36,794 nt of DNA, from the IMG/VR virus record IMGVR_UViG_2713896909_000013. One strand, 5' to 3'. The notes under the pieces were generated by a model. The model was not told the DNA's origin. It made no database searches and was given only the letters and a program-made list of their open reading frames with translations. A program made the translations under genes and the position numbers. Shown piece after piece: positions 2,915-31,900 of the stretch (positions within the stretch are counted from its first letter, which is position 1; every line of letters starts with the position of its first letter). The stretch comes from a virus (Duplodnaviria > Heunggongvirae > Uroviricota > Caudoviricetes).

Positions 2915-3115
2915 ATGCTGACGAAAGAACCATCATTTGCATCGCTGCTGGTTAAACAAAGCCCGGCAATGCATTACGGTCACGGCTGGATCATGGGGGA
3001 GGATGGTAAACGCTGGCATCCGTGCCGTTCACAAGATGAATTGCTGGCAGAACTATCTACGAAAAAACGGGGGAACAAATGGCTATTGAAGGCACTGCGG
3101 CGACTGTTCCATTAA
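2915..3115 (+). CDS. hypothetical early protein
   Basis: Small ORF in the early operon with RBS GAGGTG before the ATG at 2915. Confidence 0.4.
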   Translation: MLTKEPSFASLLVKQSPAMHYGHGWIMGEDGKRWHPCRSQDELLAELSTKKRGNKWLLKALRRLFH

Positions 3116-3420
3116 GCCCCGGTGAACGCCTGAATGGACTTAATCACATTGCGGAGTTAAGGGCGAAAGTTTTTGGCCTGAATATTGAGTCAGAGCTTGA
3201 GCGGTTTATTAAAGATATGCGTGATTCACGGGATATTAATAGCGAACAAAATAAACGGGCACTGGCTGCCATATTCTTTATGGCAAAAATTCCAGCTGAA
3301 CGTCATAGCATCAGCATTAATGAGCTGACCACTGACGAAAAGCGGGAGTTGATTAAAGCAATGAATCATTTTCGTGCAGTGGTGAGCTTATTTCCCAGAC
3401 GGCTAACCATGCCGAATTAA
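3079..3420 (+). CDS. hypothetical early protein
   Basis: 113-aa ORF in the early operon with an RBS-like GGGGGA upstream. Confidence 0.45.
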   Translation: MAIEGTAATVPLSPGERLNGLNHIAELRAKVFGLNIESELERFIKDMRDSRDINSEQNKRALAAIFFMAKIPAERHSISINELTTDEKRELIKAMNHFRAVVSLFPRRLTMPN

Positions 3421-3487
3421 CCAACTAATGAAATTAATGGCGTAAACCCGCCGGGCATCCCTTTATCTAAATTCAGGAGAATTGATT

Positions 3488-3721
3488 ATGCGTAATATTG
3501 AAACCCTCTCGACCAAAACCGGACCGGATGACGCAGGGCTTAATATTTTACTGACAGAGGCTCGTCTGGAAGAACGCCGGGCAAGGGCTGAAGCAATGGC
3601 AGCTCGCCTTGATAGCCTGGCGTGTCATATCACATCCCGCCAGCTAACCCACGTCGAAGCGGCAGAACTGCTTCGTGTGACTGCTGAAGCAATCCAGAAC
3701 GAAGCGCAGGAGATCCACTAA
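3488..3721 (+). CDS. hypothetical early protein
   Basis: ORF with strong RBS AGGAGA before the ATG at 3488; its stop overlaps the next start. Confidence 0.5.
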   Translation: MRNIETLSTKTGPDDAGLNILLTEARLEERRARAEAMAARLDSLACHITSRQLTHVEAAELLRVTAEAIQNEAQEIH

Positions 3722-3948
3722 TGGCTGATGCAATGGATCTCGTACAGCAGCGCGTTGAAGAAGAACGCCAACGCCATATCCGTGCTGCCCGTGCCAAAAC
3801 GCCGGGCGTGTCCCGCGTGCTTTGCATTGAGTGTGAAGCGCCAATTCCGCCAGCACGCCGCCGTGCCATTCCGGGTGTGCAGCTTTGCATTACCTGTCAG
3901 GAAATCGCAGAGCTGAAAGGCAAACATTACAACGGAGGTGCTGTATGA
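3721..3948 (+). CDS. TraR/DksA-family C4 zinc-finger protein
   Basis: CIEC...CITC four-cysteine motif near the C-terminus, about 75 aa, typical of the small zinc-finger ORF upstream of replication genes in P2-like phages. Confidence 0.65.
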   Translation: MADAMDLVQQRVEEERQRHIRAARAKTPGVSRVLCIECEAPIPPARRRAIPGVQLCITCQEIAELKGKHYNGGAV

Positions 3949-4802
3949 GCACCATCCTGAAATGGGCGGGAAATAAAACTGCCATAATGTCCGAACTAAA
4001 AAAACATCTTCCTGCTGGCCCGCGACTGGTTGAACCTTTCGCGGGTTCCTGTGCTGTGATGATGGAGACGGATTATCCCAGCTATCTGGTTGCGGATATT
4101 AATCCTGATTTAATCAACCTCTATAAAAAGGTTGCCGCTGATTGTGAATCGTTTATATCTCGCGCCAGAGTTTTATTTGAGATCGCAAACAGGGAGGTGG
4201 CTTATTACAACATAAGGCAGGAGTTTAATTACTCAACTGAAATTACTGATTTCATGAAAGCGGTATATTTCCTGTATCTCAATCGTCACGGTTACCGTGG
4301 TTTATGTCGCTATAACAAGAGCGGGCATTTCAACATTCCCTACGGTAATTATAAAAATCCGTATTTCCCTGAAAAAGAAATTCGCGCATTTGCAGAAAAG
4401 GCCCAGCGAGCAACGTTTATCTGCGCCAGCTTTGATGAAACGCTGGCGATGTTGAAGGCGGGGGATGTGGTGTATTGCGATCCGCCGTATGACGGTACGT
4501 TTTCCGGCTATCACACTGACGGCTTCACTGAAGATGACCAGTATCACCTGGCATCTGTTCTTGAACATCGGTCATCAGAAGGACATCCGGTCATTGTTTC
4601 TAACAGTGACACATCCCTGATCCGTTCGCTGTATCGCAATTTTACTCACCACTACATCAAGGCAAAACGCAGCATCGGTGTGGCAGCTGGCGAGGGTAAA
4701 TCAGCAACAGAAATCATTGCTGTTTCCGGGCCGCGCTGCTGGGTGGGATTTGATTATTCGCGTGGCGTGGATAGTTCTGCCGTGTACGGAGTACGTGCAT
4801 GA
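3945..4802 (+). CDS. dam: DNA adenine methyltransferase (Dam-like, N6-adenine)
   Basis: N-terminal AdoMet-binding motif (KWAGNK) and catalytic DPPY motif ([11 protein letters not shown]); RBS GGAGGTG before the ATG at 3945. Confidence 0.85.
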
Positions 4803-19749: not shown

Positions 19750-20143
19750 AGCGGTGCCTTATGTCCGCAATAACCCGGACAAACTGCATCTGTTTGTGGA
19801 TAACGGTTCGCTGGTTGCCACGGGGGCCAGCTCCATGTCATGGGAGTACCATTATACCCTCAACGTGGTGATTGAGGATTTCAGCGGCGACCAGAATCTG
19901 CTGATGGCCCCGGTTTTGCTGTGGCTGAGGGATAACCAGCCCGATGCCATCAATAACCCGGCGTTACGGGAAAAGCTATTCACCTTTGAGGTGGATATTC
20001 TGCGCAACGATGTCTGTGATATCAGCCTGAACCTGCAACTGACGGAACGTGTGCTGGTCAGCACTGACGGCAGTGTGTCGAGCGTTGAAGCTATAGCGGA
20101 ACCTGATGCACCTGAAGAAATGTGGACGGTGAAACGTGGCTGA
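19691..20143 (+). CDS. R: tail completion protein, P2 gpR-like
   Basis: 150 aa; NPDKLHLFVDNGS...YTLNVVIEDFSGD...LTERVLVS resembles P2 R. Confidence 0.8.
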   Translation: MRVRSETVNKPQSLRHALNKAVPYVRNNPDKLHLFVDNGSLVATGASSMSWEYHYTLNVVIEDFSGDQNLLMAPVLLWLRDNQPDAINNPALREKLFTFEVDILRNDVCDISLNLQLTERVLVSTDGSVSSVEAIAEPDAPEEMWTVKRG

Positions 20144-20582
20144 ACTGCAGAAGGTGGACGACTGGCTGAGTGCCTTGCTGGCGAATCTGGAACCAGCCTC
20201 GAGAAGCCGCATGATGCGCCAGCTGGCGCAGGAACTTCGCCGGACACAGCAGCAGAATATCAGGATGCAGCGCAACCCTGACGGCAGCAGCTATGAACCG
20301 CGACGGGTAACAGCACGCAGTAAAAAAGGCCGTATCAAACGTCAGATGTTTGCAAAGCTGCGCACCACAAAATACCTGAAAACTGCCGCCAGCACCGACT
20401 CTGCCAGCGTGCAGTTTGAAGGCAAGGTGCAGCGCATTGCCCGCGTTCACCATTACGGCCTGCGAGATCGCGTCAGTCGTAAGGGACCGGAGGTGCGTTA
20501 CGCAGAGCGTCGCCTTCTGGGTGTAAATGATGATGTTGAGGCAATGACCCGCGACATGATTCTGCAATGGCTGGCGGGGTGA
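20136..20582 (+). CDS. S: tail completion protein, P2 gpS-like
   Basis: 148 aa, GTG start overlapping the R stop; position as P2 S. Confidence 0.8.
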   Translation: MAELQKVDDWLSALLANLEPASRSRMMRQLAQELRRTQQQNIRMQRNPDGSSYEPRRVTARSKKGRIKRQMFAKLRTTKYLKTAASTDSASVQFEGKVQRIARVHHYGLRDRVSRKGPEVRYAERRLLGVNDDVEAMTRDMILQWLAG

Positions 20583-20586
20583 TCTT

Positions 20587-20604
20587 TGTATCAGCACTGA
20601 TACA
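20587..20604. promoter_or_regulatory. candidate Ogr-dependent late promoter element upstream of V (perfect 18-bp palindrome)
   Basis: TGTATCAGCACTGATACA, a perfect TGT-N12-ACA dyad, about 50-65 bp upstream of the V start codon. Confidence 0.55.
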
Positions 20605-20650
20605 AGTTGCAGCACTGCCGCCTTTCTTCCCCTGATGGCAACCTTTCCCT

Positions 20651-21229
20651 ATGAACGCACAATTAACCGAAATCATGCGCCTTATCACTAACCTGATCCG
20701 CACAGGGGTAGTCACCGAAGTGGACAGGGAAAACTGGCTTTGCCGGGTGAAAACGGGCGAGCTTGAAACCAACTGGATCAGCTGGCTGACGCTGCGTGCC
20801 GGGAATGCCCGTACATGGTGGCGACCATCGGAAGGTGAGCAGGTGGTGCTGCTGAGTCTGGGCGGCAATCTGGAAACCGCCTTTGCGCTGCCCGCTGTCT
20901 ATTCGAATCAGTTCGCACCACCGTCGACGTCGGCGGATGCCTGCGTGACAGAACATCCTGACGGTGGCTGGTTTGAATACGAACCCGCCACCGGGCGCTG
21001 GTATGTCAGGGGCATCAAATCAATGGTCATTGAGGCTGCTGACAACATCACCATGAAAACCAGTGAGTTTGTACTGGAGGCTGACCGCACGCGCATTAAC
21101 AGCGAAGTGGTGATCAATGGTGGCGTTACCCAGGGCGGCGGAGCGATGAGTTCTAACGGGATCGTGGTTGATGCGCATCAGCATACTGGCGTCCTGAAAG
21201 GCGGCGACACAACCGGAGGCCCGGTATGA
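20651..21229 (+). CDS. V: baseplate spike/assembly protein, P2 gpV-like
   Basis: 192 aa, first gene of the baseplate operon. Confidence 0.85.
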   Translation: MNAQLTEIMRLITNLIRTGVVTEVDRENWLCRVKTGELETNWISWLTLRAGNARTWWRPSEGEQVVLLSLGGNLETAFALPAVYSNQFAPPSTSADACVTEHPDGGWFEYEPATGRWYVRGIKSMVIEAADNITMKTSEFVLEADRTRINSEVVINGGVTQGGGAMSSNGIVVDAHQHTGVLKGGDTTGGPV

Positions 21230-21585
21230 CGCTTTATAGCGGGATGAACAATACCAGCGGCAAAGTCATTACTGATATTGATCATCTGCGCCAGTCGGTG
21301 CGGGACATTCTGCTGACACCGCAGGGTAGCCGTATTGCCCGCCGGGAATATGGTTCCCTGCTGTCTGCACTGATAGATCAGCCACAAAATCCGGCATTAC
21401 GCCTGCAGGTCATGTCGGCTGTGTATGTTGCACTGAGTCGCTGGGAGCCACGGCTGACGCTGGATTCCATCACTATTAACAGCAATTTTGACGGTTCAAT
21501 GGTGGTGGAGCTGACCGGACGGCGGAATAACGGTGTGCCTGTGTCCCTTTCAGTATCAACAGGAGCAGAGAATGGCAGTGATTGA
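21226..21585 (+). CDS. W: baseplate wedge protein, P2 gpW-like
   Basis: 119 aa, position after V. Confidence 0.85.
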   Translation: MTLYSGMNNTSGKVITDIDHLRQSVRDILLTPQGSRIARREYGSLLSALIDQPQNPALRLQVMSAVYVALSRWEPRLTLDSITINSNFDGSMVVELTGRRNNGVPVSLSVSTGAENGSD

Positions 21586-22480
21586 CCTTTCGCAGTTGCC
21601 TGCACCGCAGATTGTGGATGTGCCGGACTTTGAGACGCTGCTTGCCGAACGCAAGGCAGAATTTGTGGCGCTTCATCCGAAAGATGAGCAGGAAGCAGTG
21701 ATCCGCACGCTGGAACTGGAATCTGAACCCGTCACCAAATTGTTGCAGGAGAACGCTTACCGTGAGTTGCTTCTGCGCCAGCGCATTAATGAAGCCGCGC
21801 AGGCGGTAATGGTGGCTTACGCGATGGGCGGCGATCTTGACCAGATCGCTGCCAACTACAACGTGAAACGCCTGACGGTGACGCCTGCTGATAATGACGC
21901 TGTGCCGCCCGTGGCAGCAGTGATGGAAAGCGATGAAGCGTTACGCCTGCGTGTGCCTGCAGCCTTTGAGGGGCTTTCAGTTGCGGGGCCAACTGCAGCT
22001 TATGAATTTCATGCCCGAAGCGCCGACGGTCGGGTGGCGGATGCCAGTGCAACCAGCCCGGCACCTGCAGAGGTGGTGCTGACTGTCCTTAGCCGCGAAG
22101 GCGATGGAACTGCAGAAAAAGACCTGCTGGACGTGGTGGAAAAAGCTCTGAACAGTGAGAACGTCCGCCCGGTGGCTGACCGTCTGACGGTTCGCAGCGC
22201 AGAAATCATCCCGTATCGCGTGGAAGCCACCATTTTTCTCTATCCGGGACCGGAAGCAGAGCCGGTAATGGCAGCGGCAAAAGCCAGCCTGCAGAAGTAC
22301 ATCGCCAGTCAGACGCGTCTTGGTCGGGATATTCGCCGTAGCGCCATCTTTGCCGCCCTGCATGTTGAGGGTGTGCAGCGTGTGGAGCTGGCTTCTCCTC
22401 TGGCGGATGTGGTCCTGAACAAAACACAGGCGGCATCATGTACGCAGTGGAGCGTAACCAACGGAGGAACGGATGAATAG
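21572..22480 (+). CDS. J: baseplate protein, P2 gpJ-like
   Basis: 302 aa from the ATG at 21572 (RBS AGGAG), the same length as P2 J. Confidence 0.85.
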   Translation: MAVIDLSQLPAPQIVDVPDFETLLAERKAEFVALHPKDEQEAVIRTLELESEPVTKLLQENAYRELLLRQRINEAAQAVMVAYAMGGDLDQIAANYNVKRLTVTPADNDAVPPVAAVMESDEALRLRVPAAFEGLSVAGPTAAYEFHARSADGRVADASATSPAPAEVVLTVLSREGDGTAEKDLLDVVEKALNSENVRPVADRLTVRSAEIIPYRVEATIFLYPGPEAEPVMAAAKASLQKYIASQTRLGRDIRRSAIFAALHVEGVQRVELASPLADVVLNKTQAASCTQWSVTNGGTDE

Positions 22481-23078
22481 TCTGCTGCCACCGGGTTCAA
22501 CTTCACTGGAGCGCCGACTGGCGCAAACCTGTAGCGGGATTTCTGATCTGCAGGTGCCGCTGCGTGACTTGTGGAGTCCGGCTACCTGTCCGGTCAGCTT
22601 CCTGCCTTATCTCGCCTGGGCGTTCTCTGTGGATCGCTGGGACGAGGGCTGGACAGAAAGCGTCAAACGCCAGGTAGTGAAGGATGCTTTTTATATTCAT
22701 CAGCATAAAGGAACCACCAGTGCCGTGCGGCGGGTGGTGGAACCGTTCGGATTCCTGATCCGCATTATTGAGTGGTGGCAGACCGGAGAAACACCGGGCA
22801 CGTTTCGCCTGGATATCGGCGTGCAGGACCAGGGCATCACTGAAGATACCTATCTGGAACTTGAGCGGCTGATAAGCGATGCCAAACCATGTAGCCGTCA
22901 CATGATCGGCATGTCCATCAATCTGCAGACCAGCGGTCCGCATTGGGTGGGGGCCGCCAGCTATCTTGGCGAAGAAATCACGATCTATCCGTATATCAAC
23001 GAAACAATTATTTCTGGCGGCACCGCGCATGAAGGCGGGGCGGTCCATGTTATTGACACAATGAGAGTGAATCCATGA
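22473..23078 (+). CDS. I: baseplate protein, P2 gpI-like
   Basis: 201 aa, position between J and the tail fibre gene. Confidence 0.8.
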   Translation: MNSLLPPGSTSLERRLAQTCSGISDLQVPLRDLWSPATCPVSFLPYLAWAFSVDRWDEGWTESVKRQVVKDAFYIHQHKGTTSAVRRVVEPFGFLIRIIEWWQTGETPGTFRLDIGVQDQGITEDTYLELERLISDAKPCSRHMIGMSINLQTSGPHWVGAASYLGEEITIYPYINETIISGGTAHEGGAVHVIDTMRVNP

Positions 23079-24604
23079 GCACAAAATTTTATACCCTGCT
23101 GACGGATATTGGCGCGGCGAAACTTGCCAGCGCCGCCGCGCTCGGTGTGCCGCTAAAAATTACCCATATGGCGGTCGGCGATGGCGGCGGAGTATTGCCA
23201 ACGCCAGACTCAAAGCAGACTGCACTGGTAAATGAGAAACGCCGGGCTGCGCTGAATATGCTCTATATCGACCCGCAGAACAGCAGCCAGATTATTGCCG
23301 AACAGGTGATCCCTGAAAACGAGGGCGGTTGGTGGATACGTGAAGTGGGCTTGTTTGATGAGTCCGGGGCATTGATTGCCGTGGGCAACTGCCCGGAAAG
23401 CTATAAGCCGCAACTGGCTGAAGGTAGCGGGCGCACTCAGACCGTGCGCATGGTGCTGATTACCAGCAGCACGGACAATATCACCCTGAAAATCGACCCT
23501 GCCGTAGTGCTGGCAACCCGCAAGTATGTGGATGACAAGGCACTGGAGCTGAAGGTGTACGCGGATGATCAGATGGCAAAACATCTTGCCGCACCGGACC
23601 CGCATTCACAGTATGCACCCAAAGAAAGTCCGACGTTTACCGGGACACCCAAAGCGCCAACGCCAGCCGCAGGGAATAATACCACGCAGATTGCGACCAC
23701 CGCGTTTGTTCAGGCGGCTCTGACGGCTCTTATTAATGGTGCGCCAGCCACGCTGGACACGCTGAAAGAAATAGCCGCAGCCATTAACAATGATCCGAAA
23801 TTCAGTACCACCATTAACAATGCGCTGGCACTGAAAGCGCCGCTGTCGAGTCCGGCACTCACCGGAACGCCAACCGCACCTACTGCGGCACAGTCGGTCA
23901 ACAATACACAGATTGCCACCACGGCATTTGTGAAATCGGCGATTGCGGCAATGGTGGGTTCTGCACCTGCGGCACTGGATACACTGAACGAACTGGCGGC
24001 AGCGCTGGGGAATGACCCGAACTTTGCCACGACAATGCTTAATGCGCTGGCAGGTAAACAACCGCTGGACAATACGCTGACTAATTTGAGTGGAAAGGAT
24101 GTAGCTGGTCTTCTCACATACCTTGGTTTGGGAGAAGGTTCAGCATTACCTGTTGGTGCGCCTGTTCCGTGGCCTTCAGAGACACCTCCAACAGGCTGGC
24201 TGAAATGCAACGGGGCGGCTTTTTCTGCTGAAGAATACCCGGAACTGGCAAAGGCTTACCCGACAAATAAATTGCCTGATTTACGAGGTGAATTTATTCG
24301 TGGCTGGGATGATGGGCGCGGTATTGATACAGGACGTGCTTTATTGAGCCTTCAGGCTGGGATGCTGGAAAAGCACCGTCATATTGTTGTTGCCAATGAT
24401 GGTTACGACACAAAAGATGAATGGGAACTGGCTACGATTTTCAAAAAGACATACACACAAGGACGGGGACTTGATGCCACAAATACAGGAGGGAGTCTGA
24501 TCCCATCACCGACACTTCATTCACGAGGGAGTATCGGTAATACTGGCGGGAGTGAAACCCGTCCACGAAATATTGCATTTAACTTTATCGTGAGGGCTGC
24601 ATAA
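23075..24604 (+). CDS. H: tail fibre protein H (constant N-terminal part plus current-orientation variable C-terminus)
   Basis: 509 aa; conserved P2 H-like N-terminus; Ala/Thr-rich repeats (NNTQIATTAFV occurs twice); the C-terminal third lies inside the invertible segment. Confidence 0.85.
   Translation: MSTKFYTLLTDIGAAKLASAAALGVPLKITHMAVGDGGGVLPTPDSKQTALVNEKRRAALNMLYIDPQNSSQIIAEQVIPENEGGWWIREVGLFDESGALIAVGNCPESYKPQLAEGSGRTQTVRMVLITSSTDNITLKIDPAVVLATRKYVDDKALELKVYADDQMAKHLAAPDPHSQYAPKESPTFTGTPKAPTPAAGNNTTQIATTAFVQAALTALINGAPATLDTLKEIAAAINNDPKFSTTINNALALKAPLSSPALTGTPTAPTAAQSVNNTQIATTAFVKSAIAAMVGSAPAALDTLNELAAALGNDPNFATTMLNALAGKQPLDNTLTNLSGKDVAGLLTYLGLGEGSALPVGAPVPWPSETPPTGWLKCNGAAFSAEEYPELAKAYPTNKLPDLRGEFIRGWDDGRGIDTGRALLSLQAGMLEKHRHIVVANDGYDTKDEWELATIFKKTYTQGRGLDATNTGGSLIPSPTLHSRGSIGNTGGSETRPRNIAFNFIVRAA
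24111..24136. repeat. hix/gix-like recombination site (left crossover site) inside the tail fibre gene
   Basis: 26-bp imperfect dyad TTCTCACATACCTTGGTTTGGGAGAA; its 15-bp core TTGGTTTGGGAGAAG (24123..24137) recurs inverted at 26001..26015. Confidence 0.6.
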
Positions 24605-25206
24605 TGGATAACGCCGTATTAAATAGCGAGCTTATTGCCACGAAGGCGGGGAATATTACCGTCTATAACTATGATGGTGAAACTCGGGAATATATTTCCA
24701 CTTCAAATGAATATCTTGCCATTGGTGTCGGTATCCCTGCATATTCCTGTTTAGATGCCCCTGGCACACATAAGGCGGGTTATGCTATCTGCCGTTCGAT
24801 GGATTTAAATTCATGGGAATATGTGCCAGATCATCGCGGTGAAATCGTCTATAGCACCGAAACAGGAGAATCGAAAGAAATCACAGCTCCGGGTGATTAT
24901 CCTGAAAATACAACCACTATCGCCCCGTTAACGCCATACGATAAATGGAATGGTGAGAAATGGGTGACAGATACCGAGGCACTGCACGGCGCAGCAGTAG
25001 ATGCAGCAGAAGCACTGCGCCAGTCGCTGATTGATACTGCAATGGCCTCCATCAGTCTGATTCAACTGAAATTACAGGCCGGACGGAAGCTGACGCAGGC
25101 AGAAACAACCCGCCTTAACGCTGTGCTGGATTACATTGACGCGGTGACGGCAACAGATACCAGCACAGCGCCGGATGTCATCTGGCCTGAACTGCCGGAG
25201 GCGTAG
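24604..25206 (+). CDS. G: tail fibre assembly chaperone, P2 gpG-like
   Basis: 200 aa immediately after H; its C-terminus (DVIWPELPEA) is shared in type with the inverted copy. Confidence 0.8.
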   Translation: MDNAVLNSELIATKAGNITVYNYDGETREYISTSNEYLAIGVGIPAYSCLDAPGTHKAGYAICRSMDLNSWEYVPDHRGEIVYSTETGESKEITAPGDYPENTTTIAPLTPYDKWNGEKWVTDTEALHGAAVDAAEALRQSLIDTAMASISLIQLKLQAGRKLTQAETTRLNAVLDYIDAVTATDTSTAPDVIWPELPEA

Positions 25207-25621
25207 GCCATTCAATATCTGGCGCACCGGAAGTATCGATCAGCTCCAGTGCGTCCAGATAATCCAGCCACAAATTATATTGCGCCAGTTCATCACCTTT
25301 CAGACGACCAATAGCGGCTTTACCGGGCCATTGCTTACTGTTCATGTATTCGTTGGCCTGGTTAATTAGTAGCTGTCTTTCTGATTCAGTAATTTCAATA
25401 AGCTCTTCATGAGTAGGTGGAGGAATATCTGCCCACGTAGGTAGTCCATCCTCTCCGGCAATACGGACTTTTCCTTGTGGCGGTTCAGCCATAAACTCAC
25501 TGACAATATTTTGATTCACCTCCTTAGCATCTGATAAATCCCATCCTACTGATTTATATTTATCAATCATATCCACAGGGAAAAAAGCATTATGCCTGGC
25601 ACTATAAACATATTCGTTCAT
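25178..25621 (-). CDS. alternative tail fibre assembly chaperone (G', inverted orientation)
   Basis: Minus-strand ORF convergent with and overlapping G; C-terminus DIEWPTPPAVQAR resembles the G C-terminus; RBS AGGGTGA before the ATG at 25621. Confidence 0.7.
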   Translation of the reverse strand: MNEYVYSARHNAFFPVDMIDKYKSVGWDLSDAKEVNQNIVSEFMAEPPQGKVRIAGEDGLPTWADIPPPTHEELIEITESERQLLINQANEYMNSKQWPGKAAIGRLKGDELAQYNLWLDYLDALELIDTSGAPDIEWPTPPAVQAR

Positions 25622-25641
25622 ATAAATCACCCTGAATAAAA

Positions 25642-26016
25642 TTACTCACCAACAGCCCACCAACTGTAATGCATAGATACCGTGTCGCTGGTTGATGACG
25701 TTCTGTAAGCAGAATTAAAGCCGGTTAACGTAGGGCCTTCTGCAGTCATCACGAACCCTCGCCCAGCGCCTAAAGGCGCACCGCCATCACCAGAATGGGT
25801 AAGAATGGCGCAGTCCGCTTTTTTAGGGAAAGGGATAGGAAATGTAATCCTCATTGTTTGCGTCGATAATTTCGGCATAGCCTCACCTCGACCATATTGC
25901 AGAATTTTACCGTTGGGTAATTTCATCCATCCATCACCACTGGCAAAAGAAGCCATGTCCGGTATCTGATTTTCCCCTGTTCCCACACCCCGTTTCGCTG
26001 CTTCTCCCAAACCAAC
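25642..26016 (-). CDS. alternative tail fibre C-terminal segment (H', expressed only after inversion)
   Basis: Minus-strand reading frame running from the right inverted repeat to a stop just upstream of G'; has no promoter or RBS of its own in this orientation. Confidence 0.6.
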   Translation of the reverse strand, partial: VGLGEAAKRGVGTGENQIPDMASFASGDGWMKLPNGKILQYGRGEAMPKLSTQTMRITFPIPFPKKADCAILTHSGDGGAPLGAGRGFVMTAEGPTLTGFNSAYRTSSTSDTVSMHYSWWAVGE

Positions 26017-26027
26017 GTTTATGAAAA
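25991..26027. repeat. hix/gix-like recombination site (right crossover site)
   Basis: Contains CTTCTCCCAAACCAA (26001..26015), the inverted copy of the core in the H gene; lies just upstream of the invertase gene. Confidence 0.55.
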
Positions 26028-26082
26028 TGCAGAGATAATGGCTAACTGGCATCATCCCCGGTTTTTATTCAGGGGATTGATC

Positions 26083-26649
26083 ATGCTTATTGGCTATGTA
26101 CGCGTGTCAACAAATGACCAGAACACCGATTTGCAACGTAATGCACTGAACTGCGCGGGATGTGAGCGGATTTTTGAGGACAAAATCAGTGGTACTAAGT
26201 CCGACAGACCGGGGCTTAAAAAACTGCTCAGGACACTATCGGCAGGTGACACACTGGTTGTCTGGAAGCTGGACAGGTTGGGGCGCAGTATGCGGCATCT
26301 TGTTACTCTGATAGAAGAGTTGCGCCAGCGCGGCGTGAATTTCAGAAGTCTGACTGACAGTATTGATACCAGTACCCCAATGGGCCGTTTCTTTTTTCAT
26401 GTCATGGGTGCCCTGGCTGAAATGGAACGCGAACTGATAGTTGAACGTACCAGGGCAGGGCTGGCTGCAGCTCGTGCTAAAGGCAGAGTAGGTGGACGCC
26501 GTCCTAAGTTGACTACCGAACAGTGGGCACAGATTGGACGTTTACTCGAGGCCGGAGAATCAAGACAGCGTATTGCACTGATTTTTGATGTGGGCGTTTC
26601 TACCATTTATAGAAAATTTCCGGCGAATGAGAACAATGAATCGCCCTGA
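26083..26649 (+). CDS. serine DNA invertase (Hin/Gin/Pin/Cin family)
   Basis: N-terminus MLIGYVRVSTNDQNTDLQ carries the catalytic serine motif of resolvase/invertase enzymes; about 188 aa with a C-terminal HTH; RBS AGGGGA. Confidence 0.9.
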   Translation: MLIGYVRVSTNDQNTDLQRNALNCAGCERIFEDKISGTKSDRPGLKKLLRTLSAGDTLVVWKLDRLGRSMRHLVTLIEELRQRGVNFRSLTDSIDTSTPMGRFFFHVMGALAEMERELIVERTRAGLAAARAKGRVGGRRPKLTTEQWAQIGRLLEAGESRQRIALIFDVGVSTIYRKFPANENNESP

Positions 26650-26697
26650 GTCAGCATTATTTTGATTTTTCCTGTAAGCGGACAAATACCGTTATTT

Positions 26698-26715
26698 TGT
26701 GTGAATAACGACACA
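26698..26715. promoter_or_regulatory. candidate Ogr-dependent late promoter element upstream of FI
   Basis: TGTGTGAATAACGACACA (TGT-N12-ACA within the near-palindrome TTGTGT...ACACAA), about 80-95 bp upstream of the FI start codon. Confidence 0.5.
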
Positions 26716-26791
26716 ACTGCGCTTAGCTGTTTGTCAGGCACAATCACTTCAACATAGGGCGAAGCCTAATCCAATCAGGAGGTTCGCCACT

Positions 26792-27964
26792 ATGGCTCAG
26801 GATTACCACCACGGAGTGCGCGTTGTTGAAGTCAACGAAGGCACCCGATCCATTACCACGGTGAGCACCGCCATCGTGGGTATGGTCTGCACGGGCGATG
26901 ATGCCGATGCAAAAATGTTTCCTCTTAATAAACCCGTGCTGATCACTGATGTGCTGACTGCCAGCGGTAAAGCGGGTGAGTCCGGTACGCTGGCCCGTTC
27001 GCTGGACGCCATCGCTGACCAGGCAAAACCCGTGACCGTTGTTGTGCGTGTGCCGCAGGGTGAAACGGAAGAAGAAACCACGACCAATATCATCGGAGCA
27101 GTGACCGCTGAAGGTAAAAAAACAGGCATGAAAGCCCTGTTATCTGCCCAGTCACAGCTCGGCGTTAAACCGCGCATTCTCGGCGTGCCAGGCCACGACA
27201 CCAAGGCGGTAGCTACTGAGTTGCTGAGCGTGGCGCAAAGCCTGCGTGGATTTGCTTACCTGTCAGCGTATGGCTGCAAGACGGTACAGGAGGCGATCAC
27301 TTACCGTGAAAACTTCAGCCAGCGCGAAGGGATGCTGATCTGGCCTGACTTTACTGGCTGGGACACGGTGCTGAATGCCGAAGCAACGGCATATGCCACC
27401 GCCCGTGCGCTTGGTCTGCGCGCCAAAATTGACGAGCAGACCGGATGGCACAAAAGCCTGTCCAACGTGGGCGTGAACGGTGTCACCGGAATTTCTGCTG
27501 ATGTGTTCTGGGATCTGCAGGACCCGGCAACCGATGCAGGTCTGCTGAACCAGAACGACGTCACCACGCTTGTGCGTAAAGACGGTTTCCGCTTCTGGGG
27601 TTCCCGCTGCCTGAGTGATGACCCGCTCTTTGCCTTCGAAAACTACACCCGCACGGCGCAGGTGCTGATGGACACGATGGCAGAAGCACACATGTGGGCG
27701 GTGGATAAACCGCTTAACCCGTCGCTGGCCCGCGACATTATCGAGGGTATCCGCGCCAAAATGCGCAGCCTGGTCAGTCAGGGCTATCTCATTGGTGGTG
27801 ATTGCTGGCTGGATGAGTCGGTGAACGACAAAGACACGCTGAAAGCCGGAAAACTCACCATCGACTACGACTACACGCCAGTGCCGCCACTTGAAAACCT
27901 GATGCTGCGTCAGCGCATCACCGATCAGTACCTGGTGAATTTCTCTAGCCAGGTCAGCGCGTAA
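26792..27964 (+). CDS. FI: contractile tail sheath protein, P2 gpFI-like
   Basis: 390 aa; RBS AGGAGG; position and size match P2 FI. Confidence 0.9.
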
Positions 27965-27973
27965 GGGGACAAC

Positions 27974-28489
27974 ATGGCTTTACCACGCAAATTAAAACAC
28001 CTGAACCTGTTTAATGACGGGAACAACTGGCAGGGGATCGTTGAGTCGCTGACGCTGCCGAAATTCACCCGCAAATATGAGAAGTATCGCGGCGGCGGAA
28101 TGCCGGGTGCAGTGGATGTGGATCTGGGGCTTGATGACAGTGCGCTGGACACAGAATTTTCCATTGGTGGTACTGAACTGCTGCTGTTTAAACAGATGGG
28201 CAAAGCCACGGTGGATGGCATCCAGTTGCGCTTCACCGGCTCTATCCAGCGTGACGATACCGGAGAAGTGCAGGCCGTGGAGCTTGTGGTGCGTGGACGT
28301 CACAAAGAAGTGGATTCCGGCGAGTGGAAGACGGGCGAAAGCAACACCACCAAAGTGACCAGTACCAACAGCTACGCGAAGCTGACTATCAATGGTGAGG
28401 TGCTCTATGAAGTGGACCTTATCAACATGGTGGAAATTGTGGACGGTGTGGACCTGATGGAAGCGCACCGCAACGCCCTCGGCCTCTGA
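27974..28489 (+). CDS. FII: tail tube protein, P2 gpFII-like
   Basis: 171 aa, the same size as P2 FII, immediately after the sheath gene. Confidence 0.9.
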   Translation: MALPRKLKHLNLFNDGNNWQGIVESLTLPKFTRKYEKYRGGGMPGAVDVDLGLDDSALDTEFSIGGTELLLFKQMGKATVDGIQLRFTGSIQRDDTGEVQAVELVVRGRHKEVDSGEWKTGESNTTKVTSTNSYAKLTINGEVLYEVDLINMVEIVDGVDLMEAHRNALGL

Positions 28490-28500
28490 TGTATCTGAAC

Positions 28501-28518
28501 GGCGCGGAATGCCGCGCC
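28501..28518 (+). other. GC-rich stem-loop between FII and E (possible partial terminator or attenuator)
   Basis: GGCGCGG-AATG-CCGCGCC hairpin with no following T-run. Confidence 0.3.
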
Positions 28519-28543
28519 AGAACCCAATTTACAGGACAGCAAA

Positions 28544-28846
28544 ATGAGCGATAAGCAGACTGAAAAGACTATTAAACTGGATACTCCCATCATGCGCGGT
28601 AAAACAGAAATTACCGAAATTGTGCTGCGTAAACCGCAGTCCGGTGCGCTGCGCGGCACACGCCTGCAGGCCATTATGGATATGGATGTGAACGCGATGA
28701 TGACCGTGATCCCCCGCATCTCCAGTCCGGCACTGACTGCACAGGAAATCGCAGAGATGGACCCGGCAGATCTCACTGCCATGTCGGTTGAGGTTGTCAC
28801 TTTTTTGTTGAAGAAGTCGGTGCTTGCCGGTTTACCGACAGCCTGA
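28544..28846 (+). CDS. E: tail assembly chaperone, P2 gpE-like
   Basis: 100 aa; contains the slippery heptamer T_TTT_TTG near its 3' end. Confidence 0.8.
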   Translation: MSDKQTEKTIKLDTPIMRGKTEITEIVLRKPQSGALRGTRLQAIMDMDVNAMMTVIPRISSPALTAQEIAEMDPADLTAMSVEVVTFLLKKSVLAGLPTA

Positions 28847-28980
28847 CGGTTGACGATCTGGTGGCAGATATCGCCACCATCTTTCACTGGCCGCCATCCG
28901 TTACTGACGTTATGCCGCTGACCGAAGTGCTGGAATGGCGGTATAAAGCGATTCAGAGAAGCGGGGCCAACGATGAGTGA
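28544..28980 (+). CDS. E+E' programmed -1 frameshift fusion product
   Basis: Slippery site TTTTTTG at 28801..28807; the -1 frame stays open to the TGA at 28978..28980, which overlaps the tape measure start, as for the tail chaperone pair in P2 and lambda G/GT. Confidence 0.65.
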
Positions 28981-31900
28981 TAACAACCTGCGTCTGCAGG
29001 TCATTCTTAATGCGGTTGACAAGCTCACCCGCCCATTTCGATCTGCGCAGGCCAGTTCAAGAGAACTGGCTGCTGCTGTCAAAAAATCCCGCGATGCAAT
29101 AAAGCAGCTTGATCAGGCCGGGAGCAGTCTGGACAGCTTCCGAAAGCTGCAGGCAGAAAATCAGAAATTAGGCGACAGGCTGAACTATGCCCGCCAGCGT
29201 GCAAATTTGCTCAGTCAGGAACTGGGAGCGATGGGGCCGCCTTCGCAACGTCAGGTTGTTGCTCTGGGCCGTCAACGGCTGGCTGTTCAGCGCCTGGAAG
29301 AACGCCAGAAAAAGCTGCAGCAGCAGACGGCGCTTGTGCGTGCTGAACTGTACCGGGCGGGAATTTCTGCGAAAGACGATGCGGGAGCAACTGCCCGTTT
29401 AGCCCGTGAAACATCACGTTATAACCAGGAACTTTCGAAACAGGAGGCGCGGCTGAAGCGACTGGGGGAAGCTCAGCGCAGGATGAATGCAGCGCGTGCC
29501 AGTTATACCCGTTCGCTGGAGGTGCGTGATCGTATTGCAGGTGCCGGAGCCACCACCACGGCTGCAGGGCTGGCAATGGGTGCGCCAGTGATGGCGGCAG
29601 TAAAAAGCTATACCAGCATGGAAGATGCCATGAAAGGTGTGGCAAAGCAGGTCAATGGTCTGCGTGACGATAATGGCAACCGCACTGCACGTTTTTATGA
29701 AATGCAGGATGCCATCAAGGCTGCCAGCGAACAGTTGCCGATGGAAAACGGTGCGGTGGACTTCGCTGCACTGGTTGAAGGTGGTGCGCGCATGAACGTC
29801 GCAAACCCTGACGACAGCTGGGAAGATCAGAAACGTGACCTGCTGGCCTTCGCCAGTACGGCAGCAAAGGCGGCAACAGCCTTTGAGCTGCCAGCGGATG
29901 AACTGTCAGAAAGTCTGGGGAAAATCGCCCAGCTCTACAAAATCCCCACCCGCAATATTGAACAGCTCGGTGATGCGCTGAACTATCTGGATGATAACGC
30001 CATGTCGAAAGGGGCAGACATCATTGATGTGATGCAACGTCTGGGCGGTGTGGCTGACCGTCTGGATTATCGTAAAGCGGCGGCGCTGGGTTCCACCTTC
30101 CTGACACTGGGCGCTGCGCCAGAGGTTGCAGCCAGTGCAGCAAACGCGATGGTGCGTGAATTGTCCATTGCCACCATGCAAAGCAAGAGTTTCTTTGAAG
30201 GGATGAATCTGCTGAAACTCAATCCTGAAGTGATTGAAAAGCAGATGACGAAGGATGCGATGGGAACCATCCAGCGCGTGCTGGAGAAGGTAAACGCGCT
30301 GCCGCAGGACAAGCGCCTGTCTGCCATGACTATGTTGTTTGGTAAAGAGTTTGGCGATGACGCGGCGAAACTGGCAAACAACCTGCCGGAACTGCAGCGT
30401 CAGTTAAAACTGACAGCGGGCAATGATGCGCTCGGCTCCATGCAGAAAGAATCCGACATTAACAAGGATTCACTTTCTGCGCAGTGGTTGCTGGTCAAAA
30501 CCGGAGCGCAGAACACCTTCAGCAGCCTGGGCGAAACGCTGCGCCAGCCGCTGATGGATATTCTGTACACGGTGAAAAGCGTCACGGGGGCGTTGCGTCG
30601 CTGGGTGGAAGCTAACCCGGAACTGACAGGCACACTGATGAAAGCATCGGCTGTTGTGGCTGCGGTTACCGTCGGCCTCGGCACCTTAGCGGTGGCGCTG
30701 GCTGCAGTGCTGGGGCCGCTGGCAGTGATCCGTCTGGGATTCTCTGTGTTGGGTATCAAAACGTTATCTTCCGTTACGGCAGCAGTAACTCGAACCAGCA
30801 GCGCGTTGTCCTGGCTGGCTGGCGCACCACTGGCACTGCTGCGACGCGGGCTTGCTTCATCGGGCAACGCCGCAGGTTTACTTACTGCGCCGTTGTCGTC
30901 TTTGCGCCGCACGGCATCACTGACGGGAAATGTCCTGAAAACTGTAGCAGGTGCGCCGGTTGCACTTTTGCGGTCTGGATTATCCGGTTTACGTGCTGTT
31001 GCTGTGATGTTTATGAATCCTCTGGCGGTACTGCGCGGTGGACTGGCCGCCGCAGGCACGGTGCTGCGAGTACTGGCATCTGGTCCACTGGCGATGCTGC
31101 GCGTTGCCCTGTATGCCATATCTGGTCTGTTAGGTGCTCTGCTCAGTCCGATAGGTCTTGTGGTTACTGCACTGGCGGGCGTGGCGCTGGTTGTCTGGAA
31201 ATACTGGCAACCCATCACCGCATTTCTCGGTGGCGTGGTGGAAGGATTCAAAGCGGCGGCAGGTCCCATCAGTGCAGCGTTCGAACCGCTTAAGCCCGTG
31301 TTCCAGTGGATTGGCGACAAAGTGCAGGCGCTGTGGGGCTGGTTTACTGATCTGCTGACGCCCGTTAAGTCGACCTCTGCCGAACTGCAGAGCGCAGCGG
31401 CAATGGGGCGGCGATTCGGGGAGGCACTGGCGGAAGGGCTGAATATGGTCATGCATCCGCTGGACTCCCTGAAATCCGGCGTTTCCTGGTTGCTGGAGAA
31501 GCTCGGCATTGTCAGTAAAGAGGCCGCAAAGGCAAAACTGCCGGAAAGCGTGACGCGTCAGCAACCTGCGACGGTGAATGCAGACGGTAAAGTGATGATG
31601 CCATCGGGTGGTTTTCCATCATGGGGATATGGCTTTGCGGGGATGTATGACAGCGGCGGGTATATCCCGCGCGGGCAGTTTGGCATCGTCGGTGAAAACG
31701 GGCCGGAAATTGTTAACGGCCCGGCAAATGTGACCAGCCGGAGAAATACAGCTGCACTGGCTGCCGTTGTTGCCGGAATGATGGGCGTTGCTGCCGCGCC
31801 AGCAGAGCTTCCACCGTTGCACCCTTTGGCACTTCCCGCGAAAGGTGGAGAAGCAATTGTGAGTCGCGCAGCCACTGTGCCGCTCGTTCAACGGATTGAG

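Follow-up and report, generated by a model that had tools for sequence, protein, structure and literature searches.

The invertases Cin of phage P1, Min of p15B, and Hin of Salmonella belong to the Din family, act on the same 26-bp type of site, and share a mechanism built on a Fis-dependent enhancer. Inversion in Din systems depends on Fis, HU, and negative supercoiling. Their invertases are small serine recombinases in which an N-terminal catalytic domain, its active serine near residue 9-10, is followed by a C-terminal helix-turn-helix, and the cis-acting enhancer has two Fis sites some 48 bp apart near one crossover site, within the invertase gene in the case of Hin and Gin. What Hin inverts is a promoter and not the ends of coding regions; Min acts on six sites and produces many variants. 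The mechanism of Hin, including its Fis-dependent enhancer, has been described (PMC3798978). In e14, a cryptic lambdoid prophage of E. coli K-12, the genes of the invertible P segment and its surroundings are ordered stfP-tfaP / tfaE-stfE-pinE, i.e. a constant fibre part, a site, a tip with its chaperone, a convergent chaperone and tip, a second site, and the invertase gene. Co-existing orientations have been detected by sequencing and PCR for e14 and for two P2-like EPEC prophages (PMC4272514). In Fels-2 of Salmonella, fibre inversion has been reported beside the pin homologue fin (PMC7953296), and according to a preprint a DNA invertase often resides in the Z/fun hotspot with the adjacent genes inverted (bioRxiv 10.1101/2024.10.15.618418). 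As these three sources already report the arrangement in P2-like prophages, both inversion in such E. coli prophages and Z/fun invertases are known, and the locus described here is an ordinary member of this group.

The DNA analyzed (hereafter the window; 36,794 nt) is a P2/186-like E. coli prophage that is complete, carrying genes for integrase, repressor, replication, head, lysis, and tail as well as ogr. Its gene order around the fibre gene is H, G, a cassette (alternative chaperone, alternative tip, and invertase), and the tail sheath gene FI at 26792. Reference P2 has the order G, terminator, fun(Z), pF promoter, FI. Comparison of the two orders places the cassette between G and FI, at the Z/fun position to which the first-pass annotation had assigned it. 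P2 itself carries neither an invertase nor an alternative fibre there; its only Z/fun cargo is a T5 exclusion gene on the minus strand. P2 has an annotated activator site upstream of FI, and the TGT-N12-ACA dyad of the window lies at the corresponding position; it probably serves the F operon as its Ogr-type late-activator site. Being located downstream of the cassette, such a site would leave the sheath operon with its own promoter. The FI upstream region was too diverged from P2 pF for an alignment to be useful. Coordinates of all features are listed in Table 1.

Table 1. Elements of the fibre inversion locus, in window coordinates.
Feature	Position	Strand	Evidence or details
Tail fibre H, whole gene	23075-24604	+	509 aa in the window's orientation
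H constant part, codons 1 to ~349	23075-24122	+	Pfam Phage_tail_fib N-terminal domain, 8.5e-65
Left 26-bp crossover site L	24111-24136		Within H; TTCTCACATACC-TT-GGTTTGGGAGAA, core TT 24123-24124
Expressed variable C-terminus (collar domain and gp37-like tip)	24125-24604	+	Pfam Collar, 2.7e-15
Chaperone G (P2 G / TfaE type) for the expressed tip	24604-25206	+	Pfam Caudo_TAP, 1.4e-31
Alternative chaperone, silent in the window's orientation	25178-25621	-	Pfam Caudo_TAP, 4.1e-29
Alternative fibre C-terminus, gp53-like, silent here	25642-26013	-	Pfam Gp53-like_C, 1.8e-13
Right 26-bp crossover site R	26002-26027		TTCTCCCAAACC-AA-CGTTTATGAAAA, core AA 26014-26015
Pin-type serine DNA invertase, 188 aa	26083-26649	+	Pfam Resolvase, 2.9e-53; HTH_7, 1.7e-15
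Putative recombinational enhancer	26105-26167		In the invertase 5' end; two Fis-consensus 15-mers
TGT-N12-ACA dyad upstream of FI	26698-26715	+	Read directly from the sequence

The longest inverted repeat between positions 22000 and 28500 was the pair 24111-24137 / 26001-26027 (27 nt, 85% complementary, 1863 nt apart). Each site was parsed as 12+2+12, i.e. a half-site, a core dinucleotide, and a second half-site. The half-sites of L agree with each other at nine of 12 positions, and within H this site codes for ...TYLGLGE.... A stretch of 15 nt, TTGGTTTGGGAGAAG (24123-24137), is found again, exact and inverted, at 26001-26015. On the same strand, the centres read ...ACC-TT-GGT... in L and ...ACC-AA-CGT... 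in R; since TT and AA are complementary, the two cores are identical when each site is read in its own orientation. Allowing up to three mismatches, a 26-bp perfect-dyad query matched L alone in the window (0.00 matches expected from shuffles), and the 12-nt half-site TTCTCCCAAACC has two exact copies in 36.8 kb, one per site, against 0.17 expected. The repeat pair is real and beyond chance, with an expectation of approximately zero. Repeat search and shuffles thereby agree with the earlier description of a 26-bp hix-like dyad in the fibre gene whose 15-bp core recurs inverted about 1.9 kb away. Neither the dyad query nor the half-site count revealed a third crossover site in the 36.8-kb window, and two sites imply two variants. 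With its three repeats, one EPEC P2-like locus yields four variants; a shufflon-like multiple inversion of this kind was considered for the window and rejected, as the half-site occurs only twice. In a scan of one genome per species, exact matches to R were obtained at only three loci (two in E. coli and one in Shigella flexneri), which is hardly informative about how widely the site occurs.

Pfam and PHROG matches, together with the gene calls, support the predicted content of the segment: G on the plus strand between the sites, where gene calls and the Caudo_TAP match coincide, and an alternative fibre C-terminus with its chaperone on the minus strand. The expressed tip falls into PHROG 523 (tail collar fibre, 2.4e-74). 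In the PDB, this tip matched that of T4 gp37 (2xgf, 9.5e-19), and the match takes in the conserved NIAFNxIVR motif at the C-terminus. For the gp53-like tip (PHROG 1396 tail fibre, 1.2e-37), sequence search found no relative of solved structure. G is 91% identical to TfaE of e14. The alternative chaperone, whose start at 25621 was taken from the RefSeq annotation of ST130, is convergent with G and overlaps it by 29 bp at its 3' end; over its C-terminal 112 aa, it shares 54% identity with TfaP of e14. Thus, both tips have a Caudo_TAP chaperone of their own within the segment. The tips themselves belong to unrelated families, collar/gp37-like and gp53-like, which makes it likely that they recognize different receptors.

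The silent fibre part had been described as having no start signal. This is correct inside the segment, where no ATG lies upstream of the conserved tip region. However, the minus-strand fibre ORF has in-frame ATGs at 26052 and 26055, outside the invertible segment and beyond R, and the first of these is where RefSeq starts a stand-alone 'gp53-like' gene. Read from the sequence, ATG 26052 is not preceded by a well-spaced ribosome-binding site, and a consensus scan for a sigma-70 promoter of the silent tip gave nothing above shuffle background.

The invertase gene is located just outside R. Its ORF is intact, with the catalytic serine (Ser9) in the motif VRVS(9)TNDQ and a C-terminal HTH. The best PDB match was Gin (3uj3, 1.8e-92), and the protein falls into PHROG 125 (DNA invertase, 9.8e-101). 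The initial label of a Hin/Gin-type invertase holds at the level of the Din family, with 77% identity to Mu Gin, but PinE of prophage e14 is closer (85%). Translation most likely starts at ATG 26083, because the resulting protein start, MLIGYVRVSTNDQ, is identical to the N-termini of Pin and Gin. An upstream ATG at 26038 was disfavoured, as the N-termini of Pin and Gin match from 26083. For the invertase, the consensus scan gave no match above shuffle background and thus no convincing sigma-70 promoter; by eye, the sole candidate was a GATAAT (26034-26039) whose -35 element is poor. Within the 5' end of the gene, two 15-mers match the degenerate Fis consensus, TGTCAACAAATGACC (26105-26119) and GCGCGGGATGTGAGC (26153-26167). 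Centre to centre, they are separated by 48 bp, and their distances to the centre of R are approximately 97 and 145 bp. When the window, e14 pin, and Mu gin are aligned, the Fis-like matches of all three stand in the same columns. As the spacing equals that of the hin enhancer (PMC3798978), the region is a putative Fis-bound enhancer.

Judged by sequence, the nearest relative of the locus is the e14 P segment with PinE, rather than Hin or Gin, because of the identities of the invertase and of G to their e14 counterparts and because the right-hand site of e14 is identical to R at 26 of 26 positions. At the left-hand site, the inner half-site and the core are the same. The layout of e14 given above is also that of the window; in both, the 3' ends of the tfa genes share an overlap of 29 bp, the segments measure about 1.8-1.9 kb, and e14 has the same ATGATG as found at 26052/26055. 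The expressed tip of the window resembles stfE; a tip of this type is silent in MG1655 but expressed in the window. Several differences were evident: (i) e14 is a defective lambdoid element and the window a complete P2/186-like prophage; (ii) the constant part of the e14 fibre, the StfP N-terminus, is unrelated to P2 H; (iii) the second tip is gp53-like in the window, as opposed to the StfP C-terminus in e14; and (iv) the second chaperones are alike in their C-terminal half only (54%). By published description, the P2-like loci of EPEC E2348/69 and Fels-2 share phage family and switch logic with the window. The Mu G segment has 26-bp sites with an AAACC-NN-GGTTT centre as in the window, a site that divides the fibre gene into constant and variable parts, a chaperone after each tip, and gin just outside the right site. 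It differs in length (about 3 kb versus 1893 bp) and in core dinucleotide (GA/TC versus TT/AA). A likeness of the fibre to Mu S was also considered, but no similarity was detectable, so that the resemblance to Mu concerns the switch and not the fibre. The P1 C segment, p15B Min, and Hin/hix resemble the window by general description.

Flipping positions 24123-26015 in silico joined the H N-terminus in frame to the minus-strand C-terminus, yielding a fibre of 473 aa. This predicted product occurs naturally: in E. coli ECONIH5 the flipped query was matched in one piece (99.9% identity over 100%), and the fused 473-aa ORF is intact. The ECONIH5 flanks are collinear with the window (20075-24137 at 99.98% and 26001-29800 at 100%), including the constant part of H, which is retained in both orientations (99.98% identical), whereas segment 24123-26027 is inverted (99.74% identical). 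The inversion breakpoints fall within the shared 15-nt core (24123-24137). Of the complete E. coli genomes, 104 had the segment oriented as in the window and 77 had it flipped, in different isolates, with a median of two homologous places per genome and up to 9-11. Five related P2-like (Peduoviridae) phages showed the same gene order and the same inverted-repeat pair, which was the longest there as well. Hence, the locus is not fixed in a single orientation and its repeats are conserved in relatives; all named elements of the proposed switch architecture are present. The evidence that the segment inverts by exchange at the core is indirect but strong. We assign a probability of roughly 0.9 to the reading that the locus works as a site-specific inversion switch of the Pin/Gin type (Din family) within a complete P2/186-like prophage of E. 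coli.

It is hardly credible that the orientation differences are assembly errors or arose when the repeats recombined through RecA. Assemblers can be misled by inverted repeats, and assemblies rather than reads were compared here; however, the exact shared stretch of only 15 nt is easily spanned by long or short reads. Nor would RecA-dependent recombination be efficient over so short a length. Moreover, the records are complete genomes, 77 of them flipped, the inversion breaks at a consensus invertase site beside an invertase gene, and at homologous loci the co-existence of both orientations was verified by PCR (PMC4272514). Very improbable, too, is a fossil cassette whose orientations stem from rare ancient events or from trans-acting Pin-family invertases of co-resident prophages. 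Trans action among Din-family invertases is documented for PinQ on e14 (PMC12529663), and many E. coli genomes have several homologous places (median two, up to 9-11). Yet the invertase ORF is intact, with its catalytic serine and 85% identity to PinE, and both sites retain the family consensus and matching cores. Since orientation differs between prophages with 99.98-100% identical flanks, the flip is recent, and the 104:77 split looks close to equilibrium.

Somewhat less remote, although still unlikely, is that inversion is real but has its main selected role in the lysogen, where a tip protein produced from one of the orientations, or from the ORF that begins at ATG 26052, would mask receptors and block superinfecting phages. 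PinQ-driven flipping of the homologous 1797-bp P segment of e14 is reported to create the chimera StfE2, which blocks T2 adsorption (PMC12529663), and the expressed tip and chaperone of the window are close relatives of e14 stfE/tfaE. The in-frame ATGs upstream of the silent tip and the RefSeq gene starting at 26052 point in the same direction. A specific form of this idea, slightly less probable again, is that the silent tip may be translated in lysogens from 26052/26055 as a free gp53-like fragment masking a surface receptor. If true, the switch would also toggle superinfection exclusion by the host, as reported for e14 StfE2. Unlike e14, however, the prophage is complete with virion, lysis, and late-control genes, so that a role in the virion is the simplest explanation; the fibre gene belongs to the late operon, and lysogens normally keep that operon silent; and ATG 26052 has neither a well-spaced ribosome-binding site nor a promoter detected nearby on that strand.

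For the preferred reading, a working switch that diversifies the virion, we propose the following course. The lysogen would produce small amounts of the invertase, which would bind as dimers to both 26-bp sites; with Fis on the enhancer in the invertase 5' end, an invertasome would form. Both sites would then be cut at the 2-bp core (TT in L, AA in R), and a 180-degree turn of one subunit pair followed by religation would invert the 1893-bp segment 24123-26015. For either tip, the sole promoter and start codon are those that the constant part of H supplies within the late V-W-J-I-H-G operon. As found in the window, the operon encodes the 509-aa fibre with the collar/gp37-like tip and the TfaE-like chaperone; in the other orientation, it encodes the 473-aa fibre with the gp53-like tip and a different chaperone. 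A lysogen population would therefore be mixed, and its induction would release two kinds of virions, most likely with different receptors, amounting to host-range bet-hedging. Dependence on Fis and the enhancer, constitutive expression of the invertase, and differing host ranges of the two fibres are what we infer.

The locus provides a clean and complete example of a well-understood phase-variation device, whose orientation can be scored straight from public assemblies (104 versus 77 complete E. coli genomes, and one near-identical prophage pair that differs by the flip). It also exposes a pitfall in annotation: where the segment is flipped, automatic annotation breaks up the intact fibre gene, leaving a 'pseudogene' and a fragment on its own. 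For the prediction and engineering of host range, prophages of this type should be counted as encoding two receptor-binding proteins, not one.

In a search of positions 22000-28500, the strongest inverted repeat consisted of two 27-nt arms (24111-24137 and 26001-26027), which were 85% complementary and lay 1863 nt apart. These arms contain the left (L) and right (R) crossover sites bounding the segment. The exact inverted repeat between L and R comprises 15 nt (TTGGTTTGGGAGAAG), i.e. the inner half-sites, the core and one flanking base; the outer half-sites are not the same. On one strand the cores read TT and AA, and they are identical when each site is taken in its own orientation. Identical cores are needed for strand exchange by a serine invertase. 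A perfect-dyad 26-mer query allowing up to three mismatches matched the L site alone (0.00 matches expected), and the 12-nt half-site was present in exactly two copies, one at each site (0.17 expected in the 36.8-kb window). Neither query detected a third crossover site in the window. Judged by these counts against expectation, the inverted repeat pair proposed in the first-pass annotation is real, not a product of chance, and confined to two sites.

Features of the invertible tail-fibre cassette and of its prophage surroundings
Feature	Position	Strand	Sequence or assignment
LA2681-like HEPN protein, 525 aa	8087-9664	+	Pfam, 1.8e-38
AIPR/AbiU abortive-infection protein, 579 aa	10066-11805	+	PADLOC AbiU, 3.1e-107
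Tail fibre H	23075-24604	+	P2-type N-terminal domain, collar domain
L site	24111-24136		TTCTCACATACC-TT-GGTTTGGGAGAA (arm read as 12+2+12)
Chaperone G	24604-25206	+	Caudo_TAP
Second chaperone	25178-25621	-	Caudo_TAP; convergent with G
Alternative fibre C-terminus	end at 25642	-	Gp53-like_C
R site	26002-26027		TTCTCCCAAACC-AA-CGTTTATGAAAA (arm read as 12+2+12)
Invertase	26083-26649	+	Resolvase, HTH_7
Putative Fis sites	26105-26119 and 26153-26167		consensus match
Tail sheath FI	from 26792	+	

According to the annotation of the 99.9% identical E. coli ST130 record, a complete P2/186-like prophage makes up the window; in E. coli it is inserted between rcdA and ybjL. It encodes integrase, CI, CII, Fil, replication gene A, portal through capsid, and lysis functions, with the tail genes in the order R-S-V-W-J-I-H-G, followed by FI-FII-E-T-U-D and ogr. 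In reference P2, G is followed by a terminator, fun(Z), the pF activator site and start, and FI. The extra genes of the window likewise sit between G and FI, in agreement with the earlier placement at the Z/fun position. A perfect TGT-N12-ACA dyad, read by eye at 26698-26715 (+) upstream of FI, is probably an Ogr/Delta-type late-activator site of the F operon, and suggests that the F genes are still served by a separate late promoter downstream of the cassette; divergence from P2 pF was too great for an alignment to confirm the dyad. The second classical P2 hotspot (the old/tin position, from a DinI-like gene to portal gene Q) carries two cargo genes, encoding the HEPN and AIPR/AbiU proteins, which are probably prophage-borne anti-phage defence.

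PHROGs assignments of the cassette genes agreed with the domain-based ones. The invertase, whose start is most likely the ATG at 26083 (MLIGYVRVSTNDQ...), has 188 aa with the catalytic serine at position 9. It is 85% identical to PinE of the cryptic prophage e14 and 77% to Gin of phage Mu, and Gin was also its best match among solved structures (3uj3, 1.8e-92). The expressed fibre tip is similar to that of T4 gp37, which binds the receptor (2xgf, 9.5e-19); the similarity extends to the terminal NIAFNxIVR motif. For the silent tip, i.e. the minus-strand C-terminus, no solved-structure relative was found by sequence. Since its family is unrelated to that of the gp37-like tip, the two tips likely recognize different receptors. 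The convergent chaperone genes share 29 bp at their 3′ ends (25178-25206), an overlap also present between tfaP and tfaE of e14. Towards their C-termini the two chaperones are alike (...LDYIDA... and ...LDYLDA...); in relatives this gives rise to a short inverted repeat with a spacing of about 108 bp.

When 24123-26015 was reverse-complemented in silico, the constant 349 codons of H were placed in frame with the minus-strand C-terminus, with the second chaperone downstream of the resulting 473-aa fibre. The unflipped 3.7-kb region matched E. coli ST130 in a single piece (99.9%), and the flipped one matched E. coli ECONIH5 in the same manner (99.9% over 100%). Among complete E. coli genomes with at least 80% query coverage, 104 were found with the unflipped and 77 with the flipped query. 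Compared with the ECONIH5 locus, the window is collinear up to 24137 on the left (99.98%) and from 26001 on the right (100%), and inverted over 24123-26027 (99.74%). The flank alignments and the inverted one have only the shared 15-nt core in common, so the exchange must have taken place there. The ECONIH5 fibre reading frame is uninterrupted and encodes exactly the predicted fusion. RefSeq splits it (positions 3001-4422 of that locus) into a 'pseudogene, missing C-terminus' (3001-3390) and a 'gp53-like domain-containing protein' (4012-4422), an artefact typical of invertible fibre genes, as the stretch translates to a single 473-aa protein. Prophages that differ in hardly anything but the flip point to recent and frequent inversion. 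The two orientations come from separate isolates, not from one culture, so that switching within one population is inferred. About 400 of the roughly 6300 matching places in complete E. coli genomes were on plasmids, and many chromosomes had several (up to 9-11); parts of the cassette are thus common to many elements, and a single cell often harbours several related invertases.

The stretch from the R site into the invertase gene was aligned with its e14 and Mu counterparts and scanned for the degenerate Fis consensus. Matches occupied identical alignment columns in the three sequences. In the window, the centres of the putative sites are 48 bp apart and approximately 97 and 145 bp from the centre of R. 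At the level of sequence, this fits the Hin enhancer, in which two Fis sites are centred 47 bp apart and the DNA between them and the closest crossover site forms a loop of some 100 bp (PMC3798978). Between R and the invertase start, the stretch 26040-26062 (TGGCATCAT) is conserved between the window and e14 and carries a single change in Mu; read on the minus strand, it provides an ATGATG that lies upstream of the silent tip and in frame with it. That such conserved in-frame ATGs just outside the segment allow the silent tip to be expressed on its own in lysogens appears very unlikely.

The gene order is shared by five deposited Peduoviridae phages (500465-1, KP12, 'P2' from O157:H43 T22, Salmonella MET_P1_103_31, and Cartapus), all annotated with a DNA invertase. 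In 5/5 this site pair, in the same places, forms the longest inverted repeat, so the repeats are conserved in relatives; the first-pass annotation had counted a lack of such conservation as refuting. The same layout is seen in the P segment of e14 in E. coli K-12, whose right site is identical to R (26/26) and whose TfaE is 91% identical to G; its second tip is different, as is its second chaperone in the N-terminal half. With the Mu G segment, the window has the invertase and the design of the switch in common, but not the fibre. In E. coli P2-like prophages, sequencing and PCR have demonstrated programmed inversion of tail-fibre segments (PMC4272514). Such inversion is also reported for Fels-2 (PMC7953296), and according to a survey of phage hotspots a DNA invertase often occurs at P2 Z/fun, with inversion of adjacent genes (10.1101/2024.10.15.618418). 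Given these reports and the 99.9% identity of the window's element to annotated RefSeq prophages, the element is already known.

We consider the cassette to be a functional Pin-type inversion switch alternating two fibre tips with their cognate chaperones (probability about 0.9). A mainly host-protective role, like that of StfE2 of e14 (PMC12529663), seems unlikely; still less probable is a fossil cassette that inverts rarely or in trans only, and an assembly error or RecA-dependent recombination hardly needs to be entertained. What speaks against all three is that the prophage is complete, that enzyme and sites are intact, and that near-identical prophages divide almost evenly between the two orientations. 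Under the Pin-type switch, inversion would supply either fibre tip together with its cognate chaperone, and an induced lysogen population would release two types of virion.
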